DNA of 20,000 nt from an uncultured virus (IMG/VR IMGVR_UViG_3300027542_000008) (IMGVR_UViG_3300027542_000008:44986-64985); one strand, 5' to 3'. Shown: positions 4,028 through 20,000, numbered from the stretch's first letter. Program-made: numbers and translations. The notes: a model not told the origin generated them from the letters alone.

Positions 4028-4098
4028 TAAGGAAATATGGGCTGTTCATATGAACCGGGTCCACCTTCGGCGGGGATGTTCCCCGCCATTTTTATTTT
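4028..4098 (+). ncRNA. Candidate DUF3800-associated structured RNA ending in an intrinsic terminator
   Basis: Stem AAGG/TGGGCT-GTTC-ATAT-GAAC-GGTCCA/CCTT (4029-4067), then GGCGGGGA-TGT-TCCCCGCC plus ATTTTTATTTT (4069-4098), lying between P2 and the RBS. Confidence 0.55.
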
Positions 4099-4111
4099 GT
4101 GGAGACAAAAG

Positions 4112-4801
4112 ATGAAAGAACTTAGCATCTTTATAGATGAATCGGGCGATTTCGGGTCTTATGAAGTTCATTCGCCGTTTTATATTTTTACACTGGTTTT
4201 TCACGATCAGTCAAAATCAATACACGCACAAATTGAACATTTAAAAAGTAATCTCACGGATATGGGGTTGGATGATGACCATTGTTTTCACGCAGGTCCT
4301 ATAATACGCAGGGAAGCAGATTATGCCAACATGGATATTCCTGAACGCAGAAGACTTATTAACCGTATTATTACCTTCACAAAAAAAGTCGATATCCAAT
4401 ATGCAGCATTCTACGTCGATAAAAAGCATATATCCGATTCTGTTTCATTAACCGTTGGTTTGTCAAAACAATTATCAGCTTTTATTAAAAACGAATATGC
4501 CTTTTTTGATAGTTTCGATAAAGTAATAATTTACTACGACAACGGACAAGTGGAACTGGGAAAGATGCTGGCAACTATTTTTACTGTACTTATCCCGCAC
4601 GCGGAATTTCGTAAAGTTGTTCCCGCCGATTATCGCCTATTTCAAGTTGCCGATCTAATATGTACGATGAAGCTAATCAGTTTGAAAGCGGAAGTTCACA
4701 CCCTTTCAAAATCGGAAAGTTCATTTTTTGGCTCTATGCGAGACTTAAACAAGAACTACATAAAACCACTTCGAACTAAACAGTATGGACATAAGAAATA
4801 G
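4112..4801 (+). CDS. DUF3800 domain protein (predicted RNase H-like fold)
   Basis: N-terminal IFIDESG and C-terminal QVAD (QxxD) motifs diagnostic of DUF3800. Start moved to ATG 4112, which has a GGAG RBS. Confidence 0.85.
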   Translation: MKELSIFIDESGDFGSYEVHSPFYIFTLVFHDQSKSIHAQIEHLKSNLTDMGLDDDHCFHAGPIIRREADYANMDIPERRRLINRIITFTKKVDIQYAAFYVDKKHISDSVSLTVGLSKQLSAFIKNEYAFFDSFDKVIIYYDNGQVELGKMLATIFTVLIPHAEFRKVVPADYRLFQVADLICTMKLISLKAEVHTLSKSESSFFGSMRDLNKNYIKPLRTKQYGHKK

Positions 4802-13759: not shown

Positions 13760-14149
13760 TTAAAAAAGTTTTTTGTATTTTGCTTTTATCTGTTTCAGGC
13801 TTTCCCGAACCACGCTCGGATCGCAGTGTTCTTCCCTTGCTATCTGCGCAGCCGAAGCGCCATCCAACCGGCGTTCAAGCCTCCGGCGCTGCACAGCAGT
13901 GAGTGTAGAAAGAAACTTGTCCACTTTGGATTGACTTTCTTCCTCTTCCCGTATGCGGTCCTGGTTCTGGCTTTCGTCCGCGAACGCCTCGCCTTCATAT
14001 TCAAATCCGTCCAGAGAAATGCAGTGGTACCGCTGCTTGCGGTCTCCGTTCGATTCCTCTCTCCTCGATGCGGTAATGTACGCACCTATTTCTTCGCTTA
14101 CCTCAACTTCACTCGTAGTTCCGTCTGCAAATTGATACTTGATTATCAT
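13760..14149 (-). CDS. Sigma-70 region 4-like (ECF/Tn916 Orf7-like) transcription factor
   Basis: ISLDGFEYEG...LTAVQRRRL...AAQIAREEHCDPSVVRESL HTH; AAGGAG RBS; first gene of the replication operon. Confidence 0.8.
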   Translation of the reverse strand: MIIKYQFADGTTSEVEVSEEIGAYITASRREESNGDRKQRYHCISLDGFEYEGEAFADESQNQDRIREEEESQSKVDKFLSTLTAVQRRRLERRLDGASAAQIAREEHCDPSVVRESLKQIKAKYKKLF

Positions 14150-14191
14150 AAATGCTCCTTCCTCTCCCGAAGGAACATCTGCGGCAAACCG

Positions 14192-14229
14192 AAATATAAA
14201 AGGCTTGAGTACCTTTCGATACCCAAGCC
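14192..14229 (-). terminator. Intrinsic terminator inside the leader of the sigma-like gene
   Basis: Minus strand GGCTTGGGTA-TCGAAAGG-TACTCAAGCC followed by TTTTATATTT. Confidence 0.65.
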
Positions 14230-14362
14230 GAAAACGCCATTAAAAGGACGCATTAAAGAAAGGGTATCAACACACCTCCACATCCTAAAAATTGTTCGAA
14301 GTGCGTTATATCCGTTTGCCCTTTAATGCATGTCCGGGCGAGATATTTTTAATTACGGTTAC

Positions 14363-14430
14363 AGTATAGCAAGAAAAAACCGTGCTTTAAATGCCTGAAA
14401 GTTGCCCGATTATTGACCAGTTATTGTCTT
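14363..14430 (-). promoter_or_regulatory. Promoter of the sigma/replication operon with upstream phased repeats
   Basis: Extended -10 TGCTATACT (14371-14363) with no good -35. Three TTG(C/A/T)C units at 11-bp spacing (14402, 14413, 14424). Confidence 0.55.
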
Positions 14431-14454
14431 CACCAAAAGTTCTGCATAAATAAA

Positions 14455-14490
14455 AAAAGGCAAACTTCTTACTAACGAAGTTTGCCTTTT
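14455..14490. terminator. Perfect inverted repeat between the divergent promoters
   Basis: AAAAGGCAAACTTC-8 nt-GAAGTTTGCCTTTT (14-bp arms) with A/T tracts on both sides. Confidence 0.6.
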
Positions 14491-14504
14491 CAATATTATA
14501 GGGA

Positions 14505-14533
14505 TTGTGTTTTTACGTTTTTTATGCTATAAT
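14505..14533 (+). promoter_or_regulatory. Sigma-70 promoter for hamAB
   Basis: TTGTGT-17 bp-TATAAT with TGn extension. Confidence 0.7.
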
Positions 14534-14591
14534 AAATACGATATTACTAATTGACTAATTCATACTACATATCTCTTGGAGGATGCGCTAT

Positions 14592-16043
14592 TTGAAGAAA
14601 CTTTGCATAGGAACATTCTTAAATATCATTTCGCAAGCCAAAGCTACTGCTCGAGGACAGCAGCGGCTTTTTAGTGCTATACTTGCTGGAATTGAGGATG
14701 ATCCTTCATATGCAGAAGCCAGCTATCAAGGACATTTAAAATGTGGGGATAAAAATCCTTCCCAAGCATTCATAGATTTAACCAGAAAAAAACCTATAAA
14801 TGAACTTGCCGATTATTACGCTGAAAGTGTTTTACCACATCTCAATTCTTCACTTCAAAAACATATTGTTTTAGCGTTTAAGCAGGTACTTACCGAAGAT
14901 ACAACCATACCTGATAGTCAGAATTTGTGCCCCATTTCGGGATATACTAAACATGATATTCTAACAAAAAATGCATTTTCTATATCCGGTCTTTTGGCTT
15001 GCCTGTTTTACTATTCTGTAACACAGGTTTCAAACACAGCTTGGAAAGCAAGCATTAAAGAAATCGATAAAGATTATGTAATTTCTTTTGAATCTCATAA
15101 AGATGAAATCAATATTATTGAAAGCCATAGTCTCCCCGTAACCCCGCTTGCTGCTACCGCACGAAGCACAAGGTTTGATGCTGTATTCACTGAAGTTCAT
15201 CCCAACCATGCTCTTTCTATTCCAAACCCTTCTGCCACTCATATTTATCACTTAAGCGTTTCCGGCAACGAATTCAGTTATAGAGATATTTCAAAATTTA
15301 TCTGGGATAATATTGGACGCTATGTTTTTTCACGCGCGCAAAGAAATTCATACACAATGGAAGACATAGAAAATCTTACTGCTGATGCTATTCGAGCGTA
15401 CAAAAAGAGAGTTACTGCAGCCCCTGGTCAAAGCCATTTTGCAGAAATAATGTTATATTCGTTTCTGGAATGCGCATTAAACGCACCCAAAATAAGCAGT
15501 AAAATCGAACTTCAAAATATAGGTGGTACATACCAAAGTAAAACATCTGGCATACATTTACTTCCAAACGGTGCAAACAATCAGGTCATATTTGGAGCTT
15601 CTGAAGTAGTAAACGATTTGAAAGCTGCAATAGATTCTGCTTTCGCTCAAATCAGTGAAATCAAGTCAACCGCTAATGATGAATATACCTTAATTGAAGG
15701 GGATATTTTAAACCGCTCGTTCGATGCCCCCACCATGCAATATCTCAAAGGAATGTTAATTCCGCAAAAAGGCGGTTCAGTTCCTCCCGATACTGCTTTC
15801 GGATTATTTATCGGTTATAGCATCGGCATTCCAAACGCCGCCTTACTTTCAAATGCGGATTACCGCGCCGCGGTTGATAGCAAAATGCAAGCCGATATAA
15901 CTGCTTGCATCCCTCATATAGAAAAATTAATTTGTGATAAAAATTTAACTGCGTATTCATTTTATATTTATGTCCTTCCACTGAATGATGCCGATAATGA
16001 TAAAAACCTTATCATGAATACCGCCTTAGGGGGTGAAGCATGA
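14592..16043 (+). CDS. hamA: Hachiman HamA-like (DUF1837) protein with an extra N-terminal domain and a degenerate nuclease site
   Basis: C-terminal half has EIMLYSFLE..LNAPKISSKIEL, GIHLL, VIFG, AFGLFIGY and FYIYVLP typical of DUF1837, and is coupled to a Ski2-like helicase. Likely start is TTG 14592 (GGAGG 9 nt upstream); ATG 14583 abuts the RBS. Confidence 0.8.
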   Translation: MKKLCIGTFLNIISQAKATARGQQRLFSAILAGIEDDPSYAEASYQGHLKCGDKNPSQAFIDLTRKKPINELADYYAESVLPHLNSSLQKHIVLAFKQVLTEDTTIPDSQNLCPISGYTKHDILTKNAFSISGLLACLFYYSVTQVSNTAWKASIKEIDKDYVISFESHKDEINIIESHSLPVTPLAATARSTRFDAVFTEVHPNHALSIPNPSATHIYHLSVSGNEFSYRDISKFIWDNIGRYVFSRAQRNSYTMEDIENLTADAIRAYKKRVTAAPGQSHFAEIMLYSFLECALNAPKISSKIELQNIGGTYQSKTSGIHLLPNGANNQVIFGASEVVNDLKAAIDSAFAQISEIKSTANDEYTLIEGDILNRSFDAPTMQYLKGMLIPQKGGSVPPDTAFGLFIGYSIGIPNAALLSNADYRAAVDSKMQADITACIPHIEKLICDKNLTAYSFYIYVLPLNDADNDKNLIMNTALGGEA

Positions 16044-18655
16044 TAACCCCTCACCATCTTACACTCGGTGAAGAAATTTTCAGGGACATCGATAAAAACG
16101 AATACCTAAATGAAATTTATACAAATTTGCTGCTAAATTATAGTTATAAATTGATGAGCATACAGAGTATAAGCGCTCACCCTATCAATTTGGATGATGC
16201 CCTACGTTTTGCTGATTTACTTTCAAAGTCTGCCGGCTTTGATAACTCGGAAAAACATAGAGCCTGGGCGCAAGAAATTGTTGCTCTTCTTTTTACCCTG
16301 TATCCAAACAATCCTAAAGTTGAATATTACGCAGCTTCAGTTCTCACCACAATCGGGAACTACCGCGGGGTGCAATTAATAAAAACAAATTACACCAGTA
16401 CTTCTTTTCTTGATGCCCTTTACGCAAATTTTGATATGGAGTATCTATCAATTCCGTACCAAGAAAATAAGTATTTTTTCCATTCACAGAAAGCTATTTA
16501 TGATCGGCTTGATGAAACTGCCTTCAGCTATTCTGGTCCCACATCCATGGGAAAATCACTCCTTATGAGAATGTTCATCAAGGATAAAGTAAAAAATGAC
16601 GTTGCCGCTAATTTTGCTATTCTTGTCCCTACCAAGGCACTAATTACTGAAATTACAAGCAACATAATTCAAGACCTTAAATCATTATTGGAAGACAAAA
16701 ACTATACAGTAATTAACTCTGCCGGCGCGTTAATGCTTCAACAGCCGCATAACTTTATATTTGTTTTAACACCGGAACGCTTATTATACTTATTAATAAG
16801 CAATCCTCGCATTAACATAAATTATCTTTTTATAGATGAAGCACATAAAATTTCCTCTGGCGATGGACGCAGTGCTTTTTATTATAAAGTTATAGACATG
16901 CTTGCAGAAAAGGAAATCAAGCCGCATGTTGTTTTTGCTTCGCCTAACATCCCTAATCCTGAAGTGTATCTTAAGCTCGTACCAGACATTGAAGCAACTA
17001 AGCGGGCTGCACTTTCTACAAGCTATTCCCCCGTTAGCCAGCTAAAATATTATATAGATACTTTTTCACAAAAAGTTACCCTATTTAATGAGCATTCAAA
17101 GCAAATGCTTCCGATTACCAGCTTACAACCCGGTGTTAGACCTTTACAACTCGTCAGGGCTATTGCTTCAACTCCAGGCAAACAAAGCATTGTTTATTTT
17201 AATAGCAAAGATAAAGCTATTGAAATGGCAAGAGAATATGCGCAGACTCTTCCTTCAAAGAATGACCCCGTATTAGAATCTATAGCCAAAGAAATAAGAA
17301 ATGAAATTCACGATACATATTATTTGGCAGATATTATTACAAAAGGCGTAGCTTACCACGTTGGATATCTCCCCGCATATATCCGCGCAAATATAGAAAA
17401 ATGTTTCCGTGAACATAGAATAACCATTTTATTCTGCACAAGCACTTTGGTTGAAGGCGTGAATCTGCCAGCCGACAATTTATTTATTATGAGTTACGGC
17501 AACGGACCTCACAATATGACTCCAGTTGACTTCCGTAATTTAATCGGGCGCGTTGGAAGAATCGAATATAACCTTTACGGAAATGTATTCATTATACGTT
17601 CCGAACTCAAACAAAGAGCAGAGAAATATCAAGAACTTATCGAGCAAGATGTCCCCGAACAAAAAATTTCTCTGGTTACAGAATTAACCAAGCCACAAAA
17701 GGCTAAAATTGTGGAATCGCTGCTTGCTGGCACTACTGAGTTCCAGCAATATCCAGGGACACAAACAAAAGAATCATATGCGCTCATGCGTAAATTTGGT
17801 TTAATTTTATTACGCGACATAACTAAAGATAGAAACAGCGTCGTTCGTCGAGCCTTTGACGATTTCCTTAATCCAGAAAATGTTCAAGCAATCAAACAGC
17901 ACTTTCTTGGCTCTCATAAACGCACAAAACCTGACGATGACATAAATATTTCAGTTGACCAAACAGAAAATTTGTACACTGCAATTAGCAACGGAAAAAA
18001 GTATCCCGACCGAAACGCTGATGGCACATTTGACTATGAAACGGTAGTAAAATTCTTAGAAGAACTATACGTAATGTTTAAATGGGATAAATATGAAAGT
18101 AAAACGCTCGGATCCATTTCTGATGATGGATCACATAAAGCATTACGTTATTACGCAGTTATTTTAACTCAATGGATGGAAGGATATGGATTAAAAAGTA
18201 TAATTGATAAGGCTATATTTTACAAGAAAACACACTTTGAATCCACCGTAAATATTAATGGCAGACCAGAATATTATGATGATTCAAGATTACACAAAAA
18301 TGCCGTAACCGCGGAAACACTAACAATCATTGATCATACCATTCTTTTTAGCCTTGCAAATTACTTCTTGCGTTTTTCAACAGAATATAAAAAGCAACAT
18401 CATGTTGAAAACTTTGATAATGATTGGTATGAATTTGTGGAATATGGCTCAACAAATCCTCTCACCATTCTATTACAAAGAAACGGATTCTCGCGCGAAA
18501 CTTCCACTTATATAAAACAAAACCAAAGCAAATATGTAGAAACAACTCTTTCGGGACCGAAACTGAAACTATCTCTTTTGGAATGTCCAAAAGAATCCGT
18601 GCGAAGTGAAGTTCAAGATATTCAATATAACATTCCCGAAATATTTATAAAATAG
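16040..18655 (+). CDS. hamB: Hachiman HamB-like SF2 DEAH (Ski2-like) helicase
   Basis: SGPTSMGKS, LVPTKAL, TPERL, IDEAH, GVAYH, CTSTLVEGVNLP, NLIGRVGR. ATGA overlap with hamA. Confidence 0.88.
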   Translation: MITPHHLTLGEEIFRDIDKNEYLNEIYTNLLLNYSYKLMSIQSISAHPINLDDALRFADLLSKSAGFDNSEKHRAWAQEIVALLFTLYPNNPKVEYYAASVLTTIGNYRGVQLIKTNYTSTSFLDALYANFDMEYLSIPYQENKYFFHSQKAIYDRLDETAFSYSGPTSMGKSLLMRMFIKDKVKNDVAANFAILVPTKALITEITSNIIQDLKSLLEDKNYTVINSAGALMLQQPHNFIFVLTPERLLYLLISNPRININYLFIDEAHKISSGDGRSAFYYKVIDMLAEKEIKPHVVFASPNIPNPEVYLKLVPDIEATKRAALSTSYSPVSQLKYYIDTFSQKVTLFNEHSKQMLPITSLQPGVRPLQLVRAIASTPGKQSIVYFNSKDKAIEMAREYAQTLPSKNDPVLESIAKEIRNEIHDTYYLADIITKGVAYHVGYLPAYIRANIEKCFREHRITILFCTSTLVEGVNLPADNLFIMSYGNGPHNMTPVDFRNLIGRVGRIEYNLYGNVFIIRSELKQRAEKYQELIEQDVPEQKISLVTELTKPQKAKIVESLLAGTTEFQQYPGTQTKESYALMRKFGLILLRDITKDRNSVVRRAFDDFLNPENVQAIKQHFLGSHKRTKPDDDINISVDQTENLYTAISNGKKYPDRNADGTFDYETVVKFLEELYVMFKWDKYESKTLGSISDDGSHKALRYYAVILTQWMEGYGLKSIIDKAIFYKKTHFESTVNINGRPEYYDDSRLHKNAVTAETLTIIDHTILFSLANYFLRFSTEYKKQHHVENFDNDWYEFVEYGSTNPLTILLQRNGFSRETSTYIKQNQSKYVETTLSGPKLKLSLLECPKESVRSEVQDIQYNIPEIFIK

Positions 18656-18690
18656 AAAATGAGAGCTGGCTGTTTCAGCTCTTATTTTTT
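18656..18690 (+). terminator. Intrinsic terminator after hamB
   Basis: AGAGCTG-GCTGTTT-CAGCTCT followed by TATTTTTT. Confidence 0.7.
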
Positions 18691-18763: not shown

Positions 18764-19858
18764 TTACCGCAGTTTACGGTCAAGAAAATGCGAAAGAATT
18801 AATTTTGATTTATCGCTCTGCCTGAATATTTCTTCAAATTCATTTTGAAGTTCGATTGGCGGTACTGAAATGGATATTTGCTCTAATCGCGCTTTGGATA
18901 GTTCCTTAAATGTATTACCCGTTCCAAGGTTAATAAAATAATCTTTATTAATACGGAGAGCCGCATATAAATATACCGGATTGAGTTTTTCGCCACAAAT
19001 AAAATTCTTAAATCCCTGGTTGCAATACATTTCACAACCCGCAATTGCGGTCTTCCCGATAGGCGCACGGGTTGAAAATATCACCGTTCCCTTGGGAAAA
19101 GGGCGTAAACCCGCCGATTTTACTCCTTTTTCGGTAATATGCCGAACAGAGTCAAAAATTTCAAAAGTGTCATCTTGAAGTTCCGCGGGTGTAATCCATT
19201 TTACGTTTCCGTCCCAAAATTCAGGCTCTGATGAGCTTGGCGTTGTCCCCAAAACGATTGTCGCAACTTTAGGTAGCGGCTCAAAATCCCATCCTTTATT
19301 ATTTAAAATCGGATTTCCAAACATCTCTATAAATTGAGATTTCACCAGCTCATCGGTCATTTTGAGCAGTTTTTTATATGATTCTATGCTTTTATTCGCT
19401 GCCCAGAGAACTTTTGCCAGCTTTTTTTGATCTTCCAAAGAGGGTAACTCAAATGTGCATTCTCGCAGGTCCTTCCAGTTAACCGTAGGCGAAAGCGATC
19501 CAACCGAAATTCGTATTGCTTCATTAAAAAAGTAATCAGAAGCGATAAATAAAGGAAAGAATTCCTTATCGATAACTTCCTCTTTCGGTTGTAATACCAT
19601 CCCGTGAGCAGAAAAAATCCCATCATGAGGTGCAATGGCTGCCCGGCGCAAATATGCATTCCGTTTACCGAAGAGAACATCTCCCTTCTGCATTATTAGC
19701 TTTTCGCCTTTAATTGGCACCGCGCTTCCCCATCTGTTAACACGCAAACTCCCAGCGTCCAAATGCTCAAGTCCAATATAAAGTTCCTGGTCTCCATCTT
19801 TTGGCATCCTTTTAGCCGTACAGTTTATTGCAATTTCATCAAACCGATAAAGAGCCAT
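18764..19858 (-). CDS. hsdS: Type I restriction-modification specificity subunit (two TRDs)
   Basis: TRD1 (YIGLEHLD, GDVLFGKRNAYLR), LPSLEDQ, central LVKSQFIEMFG, TRD2 (GTTPS, FSTRAPIG, CNQGF), VPPIELQNEF. Start ATG 19858 with GGAGG RBS. Confidence 0.92.
   Translation of the reverse strand: MALYRFDEIAINCTAKRMPKDGDQELYIGLEHLDAGSLRVNRWGSAVPIKGEKLIMQKGDVLFGKRNAYLRRAAIAPHDGIFSAHGMVLQPKEEVIDKEFFPLFIASDYFFNEAIRISVGSLSPTVNWKDLRECTFELPSLEDQKKLAKVLWAANKSIESYKKLLKMTDELVKSQFIEMFGNPILNNKGWDFEPLPKVATIVLGTTPSSSEPEFWDGNVKWITPAELQDDTFEIFDSVRHITEKGVKSAGLRPFPKGTVIFSTRAPIGKTAIAGCEMYCNQGFKNFICGEKLNPVYLYAALRINKDYFINLGTGNTFKELSKARLEQISISVPPIELQNEFEEIFRQSDKSKLILSHFLDRKLR
19327..19354. repeat. 28-bp hsdS direct repeat, copy 1
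   Basis: CTATAAATTGAGATTTCACCAGCTCATC, identical to 19902-19929. Confidence 0.9.
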
Positions 19859-20000
19859 TATGCGCACCTCCTTGCGGAAGCGGCAAAGGGCGAAATTTGC
19901 CCTATAAATTGAGATTTCACCAGCTCATCAGTGCTTTTTATGAGGTTTTGATATGATTTTTTTGTCCTATAGGCAGCCCATAATACTTCTACCAATTCCT
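19858..20000 (-). CDS. hsdS: 3' end of a second HsdS-like subunit (5' part outside window)
   Basis: Manual translation ELVEVLWAAYRTKKSYQNLIKSTDELVKSQFIGQISPFAASARRCA*, homologous to the central coil of the downstream HsdS. TAATG overlap at 19858. Confidence 0.8.
   Translation of the reverse strand, partial: ELVEVLWAAYRTKKSYQNLIKSTDELVKSQFIGQISPFAASARRCA
19902..19929. repeat. 28-bp hsdS direct repeat, copy 2
   Basis: Identical to 19327-19354; encodes DELVKSQFI in both genes. Confidence 0.9.

Follow-up and report, generated by a model that had tools for sequence, protein, structure and literature searches.

A Hachiman pair in a putative Candidatus Heliusvirales prophage carries a HamA without its catalytic triad and an N-terminal all-alpha domain shared with other defence systems

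Type I Hachiman has been divided into four types, I-A to I-D (PMC11914072; Nat Commun 2025;16:2604). In the accessible part of that paper, type I-A consists of the DUF1837 domain alone and is active, type I-B carries an N-terminal Cap4 nuclease (AbpAB, PDB 8zue), type I-C a peptidase and type I-D unidentified 'X' domains; types I-B, I-C and I-D are described as lacking the PD-(D/E)XK site and as probable scaffolds for the domains fused to them. The available portions of related studies likewise describe several HamA fusion types in which D-GEXK is absent, and a dead HamA domain needed to oligomerise a fused protease after ATP hydrolysis by HamB (PMC12799240, Science 2025, and its preprint), a trypsin-HamAB with no nuclease activity (bioRxiv 10.1101/2025.09.03.673762), and the earlier remark that AbpA is a HamA whose site is inactive and whose N-terminus carries a fusion, in a study that defined the ECOR31 HamA motif by E138/K140 and reported that Hachiman responds to DNA damage (PMC12278908). 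Here we describe a hamA-hamB pair in the uncultured virus record IMGVR_UViG_3300027542_000008, of which the final 20 kb (44986-64985 of 64,985 bp; hereafter the window, 20,000 nucleotides, with positions counted from its first letter) were analysed. Judged from sequence, the system is probably accessory defence cargo of a Candidatus (Ca.) Heliusvirales gut prophage and belongs to the fusion class published as type I-D. The locus is thus a member of a described class, because the accessible portions of PMC11914072 and PMC12799240 already describe dead HamAs that bear unidentified N-terminal domains, and as such it is ordinary; its interest lies in the swapped-in N-terminal domain, which has neither a family name nor a structural relative.

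The two genes lie on the same strand with a 4-nt overlap (ATGA) and form an intact overlapping Hachiman pair, and their description in a first-pass annotation of the window as coupled and uninterrupted, with every HamB helicase motif in place, holds. An in-frame ATG at 14583 offers an alternative start for hamA, and the TTG at 14592 is preferred because an identical database copy (P0003, 483 aa, 100% identity) begins there and a GGAGG sits 9 nt upstream. Residues 235-467 of HamA match the Pfam family HamA (PF08878, DUF1837; E 1.7e-34) above its 25-bit cut-off, and the PADLOC model HamA1 (PDLC00164) aligns over positions 4-484 of its 490-position profile (E 7e-121), so the long HamA form is already represented in this defence-system library. 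HamB matches PADLOC HamB1 (PDLC00190, E 0) as well as the Pfam families DEAD, ResIII and Helicase_C, and retains Walker A (GPTSMGKS, 166), DEAH (266), motif V (TSTLVEGVN, 467) and GRVGR (503). A DUF1837-containing HamA with an adjacent, co-oriented HamB whose ATPase motifs are intact places the pair within Hachiman. The closest solved HamB by sequence is PDB 9wh1_B (E 3.8e-76), and 9wh1_A (E 4.9e-8) is the sole solved HamA that was reached by sequence search. We take 9wh1 to be probably of the protease-HamAB kind, and its sameness with the nuclease-negative trypsin-HamAB is our guess.

Canonical HamAs read G-x-D-x-x-H ... G-E-x-K at the catalytic site, where the HamA of the window reads T-S-G-I-H ... 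G-A-S-E. The first-pass annotation had located these two strings at 15543-15557 and 15594-15605 and concluded that D, E and K were lost; both strings are exact, and the loss is confirmed by an alignment of the HamA domain with 80 relatives from genomes and by a second one that adds remoter canonical HamAs, found via PF08878 in 401 Bacillota genomes. In both alignments S322 occupies the Asp column, A339 (15597-15599) the Glu column and E341 (15603-15605) the Lys column. Among 42 long HamAs, Glu is found at position 339 in 0/42, Lys at 341 in 2/42 and Asp at 322 in 2/42, and none carries the full triad that characterises type I-A (D...(D/E)xK); since Glu at 339 is missing from all 42, the loss is a feature of the clade and not a local accident. 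Across the 80 genome loci, D-E-K is kept in nine, all of them short (295-325 aa) and in one clade (SH-aLRT 100), and lost in 71, which include all 24 long HamAs. In the full-length model (pLDDT 86.1), S322 and A339/E341 are predicted to lie on two consecutive strands (323-327 and 334-342) that follow helix 285-298, the arrangement that a nuclease core would be expected to show. The best Foldseek matches of this model are all HamA chains, with 8zue_A at the top (E 5.7e-5) beside 8vxy_A (probability 0.92) and 8vx9_A (probability 0.96). Profile searches of the PDB, built from the long clade and from the intact short clade, reached 9wh1_A only and not 8vx9_A, so the D/E/K columns are tied to ECOR31 E138/K140 through the canonical-HamA alignment and the likeness of fold, and not by direct alignment of the chains.

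Fused domains are not a feature of every HamA without E-x-K. Short HamAs of approximately 307-321 aa (L018, L019, L021-L024, L042, L058 and others) have no fused domain and read D-T-S or D-S-S, and the published statement that DUF1837-only HamAs retain the active site fails for them. They lie directly downstream of an hsdM-hsdS-hsdR-like trio, recognised by gene size and confirmed with Pfam in the two loci scanned (L018, L042), and are co-directional with hamB; in L034, hsdR also precedes hamA, after an AbiJ-like gene. A four-gene variant (L057, L070, L071, L072, L085) consists of a 276-303-aa N_BRCA1_IG-like protein, a 73-75-aa HTH_17 protein (Pfam match in 4/5 loci), a short dead HamA with G-K-N or G-K-H in the triad columns, and HamB. 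It adjoins the Heliusvirales exonuclease/SSB/PolA module in four of these five loci, and two show a sigma-70 region 4 gene in divergent orientation to it.

The first-pass annotation had noted about 190 extra N-terminal residues before the DUF1837 part of HamA; about 180 were found, and they fold separately in the model. Modelled alone, residues 1-180 (hereafter N-dom) form 12 helices and no sheet with pLDDT 95.1 and pTM 0.90, and in the full-length model a low-confidence linker (181-185) separates them from the HamA domain. The region in which a helix-turn-helix (HTH) had been suspected is predicted to be an all-alpha fold, and a Pfam scan of residues 1-190 returned nothing at E<=1, and no HTH family. 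NCBIfam gave no match for either HamA or N-dom, Foldseek searches of N-dom against the PDB and BFVD found none at E<=0.001, and PADLOC covers N-dom solely through the first 180 positions of its long-HamA model. The top feature of residues 1-190 in the ESM Atlas (0.76, a Cas8a1/Csx8 cluster; structural TM <=0.32) fell below the bars and was not used. Predicted as a complex of two copies, N-dom scored 0.00 twice where the mark is 0.42, which speaks neither for nor against self-association. N-dom is acidic to neutral, with a median pI of 5.4 and a basic pI in 9/58 homologues. D106 is conserved in 58/58, K123 in 57/58 and C8 in 56/57 of the aligned homologues, and this invariant Asp with its near-invariant Lys and Cys suggests an enzyme.

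Homologues of N-dom occupy the effector position in other defence proteins. When 1.84 billion representatives were searched by phmmer with residues 1-195 as the query, 214 matches were returned, 57 of them at E<=1e-10; nearly all of the matches listed begin at or near residue 1, and many are long HamAs. Domain architecture was scanned in 58 of the 150 listed matches, selected for a length unlike the approximately 480-495 aa of the long HamAs. N-dom is joined to ABC-3C (Lamassu) CTD11 in 23 of these, to ABC-3C CTD6 in three, to ThsA_Macro in three, to NACHT, NB-ARC or other STAND or giant TPR proteins in seven, to HamA in five, and to a protein kinase and DUF6650 in one each; 15 have no further family beside it. 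It is N-terminal in all 58 except the kinase, where it starts at residue 145, and the partner parts are named LmuA, ThsA and PD-T4-6-like by PADLOC. In Lamassu, Thoeris and Avs/STAND proteins the N-terminal position is the seat of the effector. For HamA fusions, the accessible text of two papers supports the same position (PMC11914072, PMC12799240). The gene for N-dom-CTD11 (411-433 aa) heads an operon of matching gene sizes in 4/4 genome loci examined, and in two of these Pfam identifies MC7 (83 aa) and a DUF2326/AAA_23 ATPase, which corresponds to the three-component layout of Lamassu. N-dom is present in 11 of the 401 Bacillota genomes sampled. A literature search for LmuA, ThsA and HamA named together turned up one review; it does not follow from this that the domain in common is new to the literature.

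By the published text definition, the locus falls into type I-D, because its extra domain is neither Cap4 nor a peptidase and its DUF1837 domain lacks the catalytic residues. It shares with this type the hamA-hamB order with a 4-nt overlap, the non-Cap4, non-peptidase N-terminal domain, the dead DUF1837 and the proposed scaffold role, and differs from it as described in the accessible text (where no function or wider distribution is given for 'X') in that the domain found here is common to Lamassu, Thoeris and STAND proteins. AbpAB (type I-B), from the Escherichia coli K-12 prophage CP4-57 and the top Foldseek match (8zue), is likewise prophage-borne and combines a dead DUF1837 with an N-terminal effector, but this effector is a Cap4-type PD-(D/E)xK domain with a beta-sheet core, whereas N-dom is all-alpha and matches no nuclease family, which sets the locus apart from type I-B. 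Protease-HamAB with its metallo-beta-lactamase (MBL) pro-nuclease (HamMAB; PMC12799240) also has a dead HamA, and there the N-terminally fused effector is controlled by ATP hydrolysis of HamB; in contrast, the HamA of the window has no trypsin match and the system has two genes only. None of the 21 ORFs scanned in the window encodes an MBL fold, and the locus does not fit type I-C. With canonical HamAB (type I-A; ECOR31, PDB 8vx9; Cell 2024, PMC12278908) it shares the HamA fold (Foldseek probability 0.96, TM by target 0.51) and a Ski2-like HamB, but its HamA has S/A/E in place of D-E(X)K and 180 extra residues. LmuA proteins with N-dom carry the homologous domain (E down to 1e-19 with N-dom of the window as the query) in the same effector position before an ATPase-coupling C-terminal domain; however, the sensor chassis there is MC7 with a DUF2326/AAA_23 ATPase, and here it is a helicase.

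The rest of the window is occupied, on the minus strand, by the early/replication operon of a phage, with packaging and accessory genes after it (Pfam, PHROGs). By blastn the phage module is 64-67% identical to records classed as Ca. Heliusvirales, and on this similarity of the replication module the window is assigned to a prophage of that group. The early operon comprises, in transcription order, a sigma-region-4-like gene, a DUF2800 exonuclease, a Gp2.5-like single-stranded DNA-binding protein (SSB), PolA, DUF7768, a D5-type primase-helicase, VRR-NUC, SNF2, a second sigma-like regulator, HNH, the small terminase, a SAM synthetase and a ParB-methylase; terminase, portal and tail genes and two serine recombinases lie upstream on the record. 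The hamAB genes and the downstream hsdS have a G+C content of 36-38%, compared with 45-50% in the phage genes. The record ends just past hsdS, and the one further viral record with an identical hamA, found in a scan of viral contigs, also ends, approximately 0.8 kb past hamB.

Homologues of the exonuclease, SSB, PolA or DUF7768 lie <=8 kb from hamA in 24 of the 71 dead-HamA loci (two more have weaker markers only), compared with phage module markers within 8 kb in 0/9 intact-HamA loci, and among loci with >=5 kb of upstream sequence the phage module is near 23/44 dead and 0/7 intact ones; these figures are counts and not a test, the loci being related and sampled around a phage-borne query. 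Phage-adjacent loci occur in most dead sub-clades, in Bacillota and Actinomycetota, and since 17 changes are needed on the HamA tree, the adjacency is scattered. No phage gene was found within 8 kb in 15 of the 24 long-HamA loci, and those off phages with readable flanks are mostly situated among restriction-modification (R-M), McrBC, LlaJI and GmrSD genes. Two genomes (G001, G002) have the same hamAB-Type III R-M-DUF4357 cassette after the phage module and different host flanks (NEAT/LRR and collagen-binding proteins, respectively), and the cassette therefore travels with the element. In relatives the equivalent slot is filled differently: phage NatCom_991 has an HTH_3 repressor and an ImmA-like M78 peptidase, the induced phage TPDSL_ph1 a 278-aa protein and a 930-aa SF1 helicase followed by a Cro/C1 repressor, and genome G270 (L124, G270:C1:944000-956000) a 991-aa N-dom-NACHT-SNaCT14 protein with an SNF2 helicase and DUF4391, divergent from the DUF2800 exonuclease module. 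Because relatives hold other defence genes there, the slot appears to be a hotspot for defence cargo, and its content fits a variable cargo region next to the control region of the prophage. Lambda rexAB is lysogen-expressed defence cargo next to the immunity region. Like rexAB, the pair of the window neighbours the region in which a temperate phage controls its early operon; unlike rexAB, it has no adjoining repressor gene in the window.

We consider it reasonably probable that the locus is a Hachiman system borne by a prophage, with HamB as the sensor of aberrant DNA, the dead HamA domain as the relay of its signal and N-dom as the effector, as the first-pass annotation had suggested as its alternative (a replacement effector) and as the reuse of N-dom in the effector position elsewhere favours. 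Expressed in the lysogen, HamB would act as a DNA-sensing helicase that meets aberrant DNA, for instance 3' ends or intermediates from the replication of an infecting phage, and ATP hydrolysis would free or oligomerise HamA, by analogy with AbpAB and protease-HamAB. The DUF1837 domain, presumably no longer cutting DNA, would serve as a scaffold controlled by HamB; N-dom would then act as a toxic effector, and the infected lysogen would stop growing or die, which would protect the host population of the prophage. Several observations weigh against this proposal. N-dom has no family or fold match in Pfam, NCBIfam, the PDB or BFVD that hints at an activity, and it contains no transmembrane-like segment (top Kyte-Doolittle 19-residue mean 1.39), so that a simple membrane effector is unlikely. 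In the CTD11 fusions, the most frequent kind, it is followed by a Cys4 HNH-like segment (a weak HNH match in one protein, P0157, E 8e-4; the HNH His is absent in two of the three CTD11 sequences read), and N-dom may therefore not act alone in these proteins. RNA-library contigs (X15, X16) cover all 30 bins of the window evenly and so do not discriminate hamAB expression from that of lytic genes. Finally, the record stops short of the prophage end, which lies beyond hsdS, so that hamAB is assigned to the prophage by comparison with relatives.

The lack of a recognisable catalytic family or fold in N-dom and the HNH-like zinc segment that follows it in CTD11 proteins would also suit an adaptor or sensor that binds a phage protein or recruits a host or trans factor, with toxicity coming from, for example, HamB acting on the chromosome or a recruited host nuclease. 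N-terminal adaptor domains are reportedly found in STAND systems. We nevertheless regard an adaptor as unlikely: a second N-dom ORF was found at none of the 80 hamA loci and the 24 long hamAB loci have no conserved third gene in common, which argues against docking of a separately encoded partner; moreover, the CTD6, ThsA-Macro and HamA fusions contain no non-sensor part other than N-dom, and its invariant Asp and near-invariant Lys and Cys resemble an active site more than a binding surface. Another alternative, in which the HamA domain has kept its nuclease activity by moving the active site and N-dom plays an accessory part, is highly unlikely. Catalytic residues have migrated in known PD-(D/E)xK enzymes, and E296, K303, K307, E309, H325 and Q334 are invariant in the 42 long HamAs; yet the relatives that keep D...ExK conserve these six residues equally, and they are therefore features of the family and not compensation. 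The solved long HamA 9wh1_A also lacks ExK at the same columns, trypsin-HamAB is reported to be without nuclease activity (bioRxiv 10.1101/2025.09.03.673762) and the published classes, in the portions accessible, regard such domains as scaffolds. A decaying remnant without function, to which the lost triad might point, is extremely improbable, given that both ORFs are intact and translationally coupled, that every HamB motif is retained, that 198 related clusters were found at E<=0.001 (nearly all of the 120 listed being full length) and that 33 columns are invariant in 42 sequences with 36-89% identity to the query.

The first-pass annotation had preferred a different role, in which HamAB would serve as a RecA/cI-independent induction switch: damage-sensing HamB would release a DNA-binding HamA fusion that switches on the element, the presumed target being the intergenic region 14150-14580 ahead of the early operon. 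The pair and this operon are divergently oriented, the slot of NatCom_991 holds a repressor and peptidase of the damage-responsive switch type, dead-HamA pairs are near the phage module in 24-26/71 loci and intact ones in 0/9, and Hachiman is reported to respond to DNA damage (PMC12278908, as far as accessible). The observation that no cI-type HTH gene lies in the window is also correct by Pfam scan; two HTH_3 genes are, however, present elsewhere on the 65-kb record. The position next to the early operon stands as a recurrent arrangement, and the sigma label of the first gene in that operon is sub-threshold (Sigma70_r4_2 E 0.0039; TIGR02937 24.5 bits against a cut-off of 42.9), the counterpart in TPDSL_ph1 being annotated as a sigma factor. 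Likewise, the expected association of the dead site with long HamAs is seen in all 24, whereas the association with phage genes fails in 15 of these, whose readable flanks hold mostly R-M-type genes. Residues 1-190 gave no Pfam match to an HTH or other DNA-binding family, N-dom gave no fold match in the PDB or BFVD and is acidic, the domain heads Lamassu, Thoeris and STAND proteins unrelated to prophage control, unrelated defence genes fill the slot in other relatives, and phage adjacency is scattered over the HamA tree. The positive support for such a switch does not reach beyond its position, and we consider it highly unlikely.

A broader proposal can be put forward tentatively, namely that N-dom is a previously undescribed abortive-infection effector with a fold absent from the PDB, swapped as a cassette between no fewer than five sensor chassis (Hachiman, Lamassu, type II-like Thoeris, NACHT/NB-ARC STAND and kinase), and that dead-HamA Hachiman is a habitual passenger of the Ca. 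Heliusvirales control-region slot in Bacillota and Actinomycetota, perhaps adjusted so as to spare the replication intermediates of its own prophage and still exclude rivals. The activity of N-dom, once worked out, would explain the killing or arrest of infected cells by several systems, and the recurrent place next to the early operon, in a gut prophage lineage that is very widespread, provides a defined spot in which to seek more defence cargo.

Table 1. Features in and around the hamAB locus (window positions; a dot marks a feature assigned to neither strand)
Feature	Position	Strand	Basis
Small sigma-70 region-4-like gene, first of the early operon (outside the Hachiman system)	13760..14149	-	Sigma70_r4_2 E 0.0039; PHROG 11138; TIGR02937 E 1.8e-5
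15-bp hairpin with an A-run and a T-run at its sides, resembling a two-way terminator; early operon/hamA interval	14454..14491	.	Repeat/hairpin scan
Likely hamAB promoter, left edge of cassette	14505..14533	+	TTGTGT, 17 nt, extended -10 TGCTATAAT at 14525-14533; direct reading
hamA, long form	14592..16043	+	483 aa from TTG; ORF and whole-length match to PADLOC PDLC00164
N-terminal all-alpha domain (N-dom, ~180 aa), candidate effector	14592..15131	+	Structure model; no family or fold match; 214 homologues
DUF1837/HamA domain without catalytic triad (dHamA, putative scaffold)	15144..16040	+	PF08878 at 235-467; PADLOC short-HamA model aligned from residue 188; Foldseek
S322 in the catalytic Asp column	15546..15548	+	Two alignments
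A339-S340-E341 in the E-x-K columns	15597..15605	+	Two alignments
hamB, SF2 Ski2/Hel308-like helicase, motifs intact	16040..18655	+	PADLOC HamB1; Pfam DEAD and Helicase_C; PDB 9wh1_B
Terminator-like hairpin directly after hamB	18654..18690	+	Hairpin scan
hsdS, Type I R-M specificity subunit, neighbouring defence cargo	18764..19867	-	Pfam Methylase_S E 2.3e-33

The predicted hamAB promoter (Table 1) was not listed by a scan for consensus promoters. Contigs of other variants leave the window at 14505 (rightward) and 14519 (leftward) in runs X16 and X11, just right of the 14454-14491 hairpin and at the -35 of this promoter, and in X15, a single study, RNA-library contigs break at 14525/14527 where a DNA contig runs through. 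The interval 14505-14527 marks a recombination boundary of the hamAB cassette and possibly also a transcript boundary, on the evidence of that one study. No convincing direct or inverted repeats flanking the cassette were found except for the hairpin and the hsdS repeat. Read on the minus strand, two strong terminator-like hairpins (14202-14229 and 14454-14491) lie between the likely early promoter and the gene at 13760-14149 and match no Rfam family; they could represent a leader under antitermination.

Within hsdS, joints in both DNA and RNA-library contigs skip approximately 494-502 nt (18820-18823 to 19317-19323), with one inverted join, and a 93-nt direct repeat (19327-19419 and 19902-19994) is present, right after which the record stops. 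This pattern looks like shuffling of target-recognition domains, and probably explains why both assemblies that contain the gene break at hsdS. Type III R-M genes are found next to two of the systems discussed above: the N-dom-CTD11/MC7/ATPase operon is followed by co-directional Type III Mod and Res genes in four genomes (L120-L123), and long hamAB likewise precedes Type III R-M in L015, L073 and L082.

Elsewhere on the record, outside the window and past the two serine recombinases at the end of the phage operon (G000:C1:1-17400, L003), there are a GmrSD-like gene, an RNase III-like gene with a dsRBD, a DUF6551 gene and a third serine recombinase, together with a divergent HTH_3 gene pair; this region may be a second element or the lysogeny region of the present one. 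Within the minus-strand phage operon, a DUF3800 gene (ORF 4037-4801) forms a plus-strand island of low G+C content (37-40%), and an Rfam DUF3800-XI RNA motif was identified at its 5' end (4038-4084, plus strand; 51.2 bits against a gathering threshold of 37.8). The phage (338-1375 of the window, minus strand, and L005) also encodes a SAM synthetase and has amidoligase, GGACT-like and PAPS reductase-like genes, a gene content in line with the auxiliary genes for sulfur and methionine that the accessible part of PMC11283538 reports from Ca. Heliusvirales.

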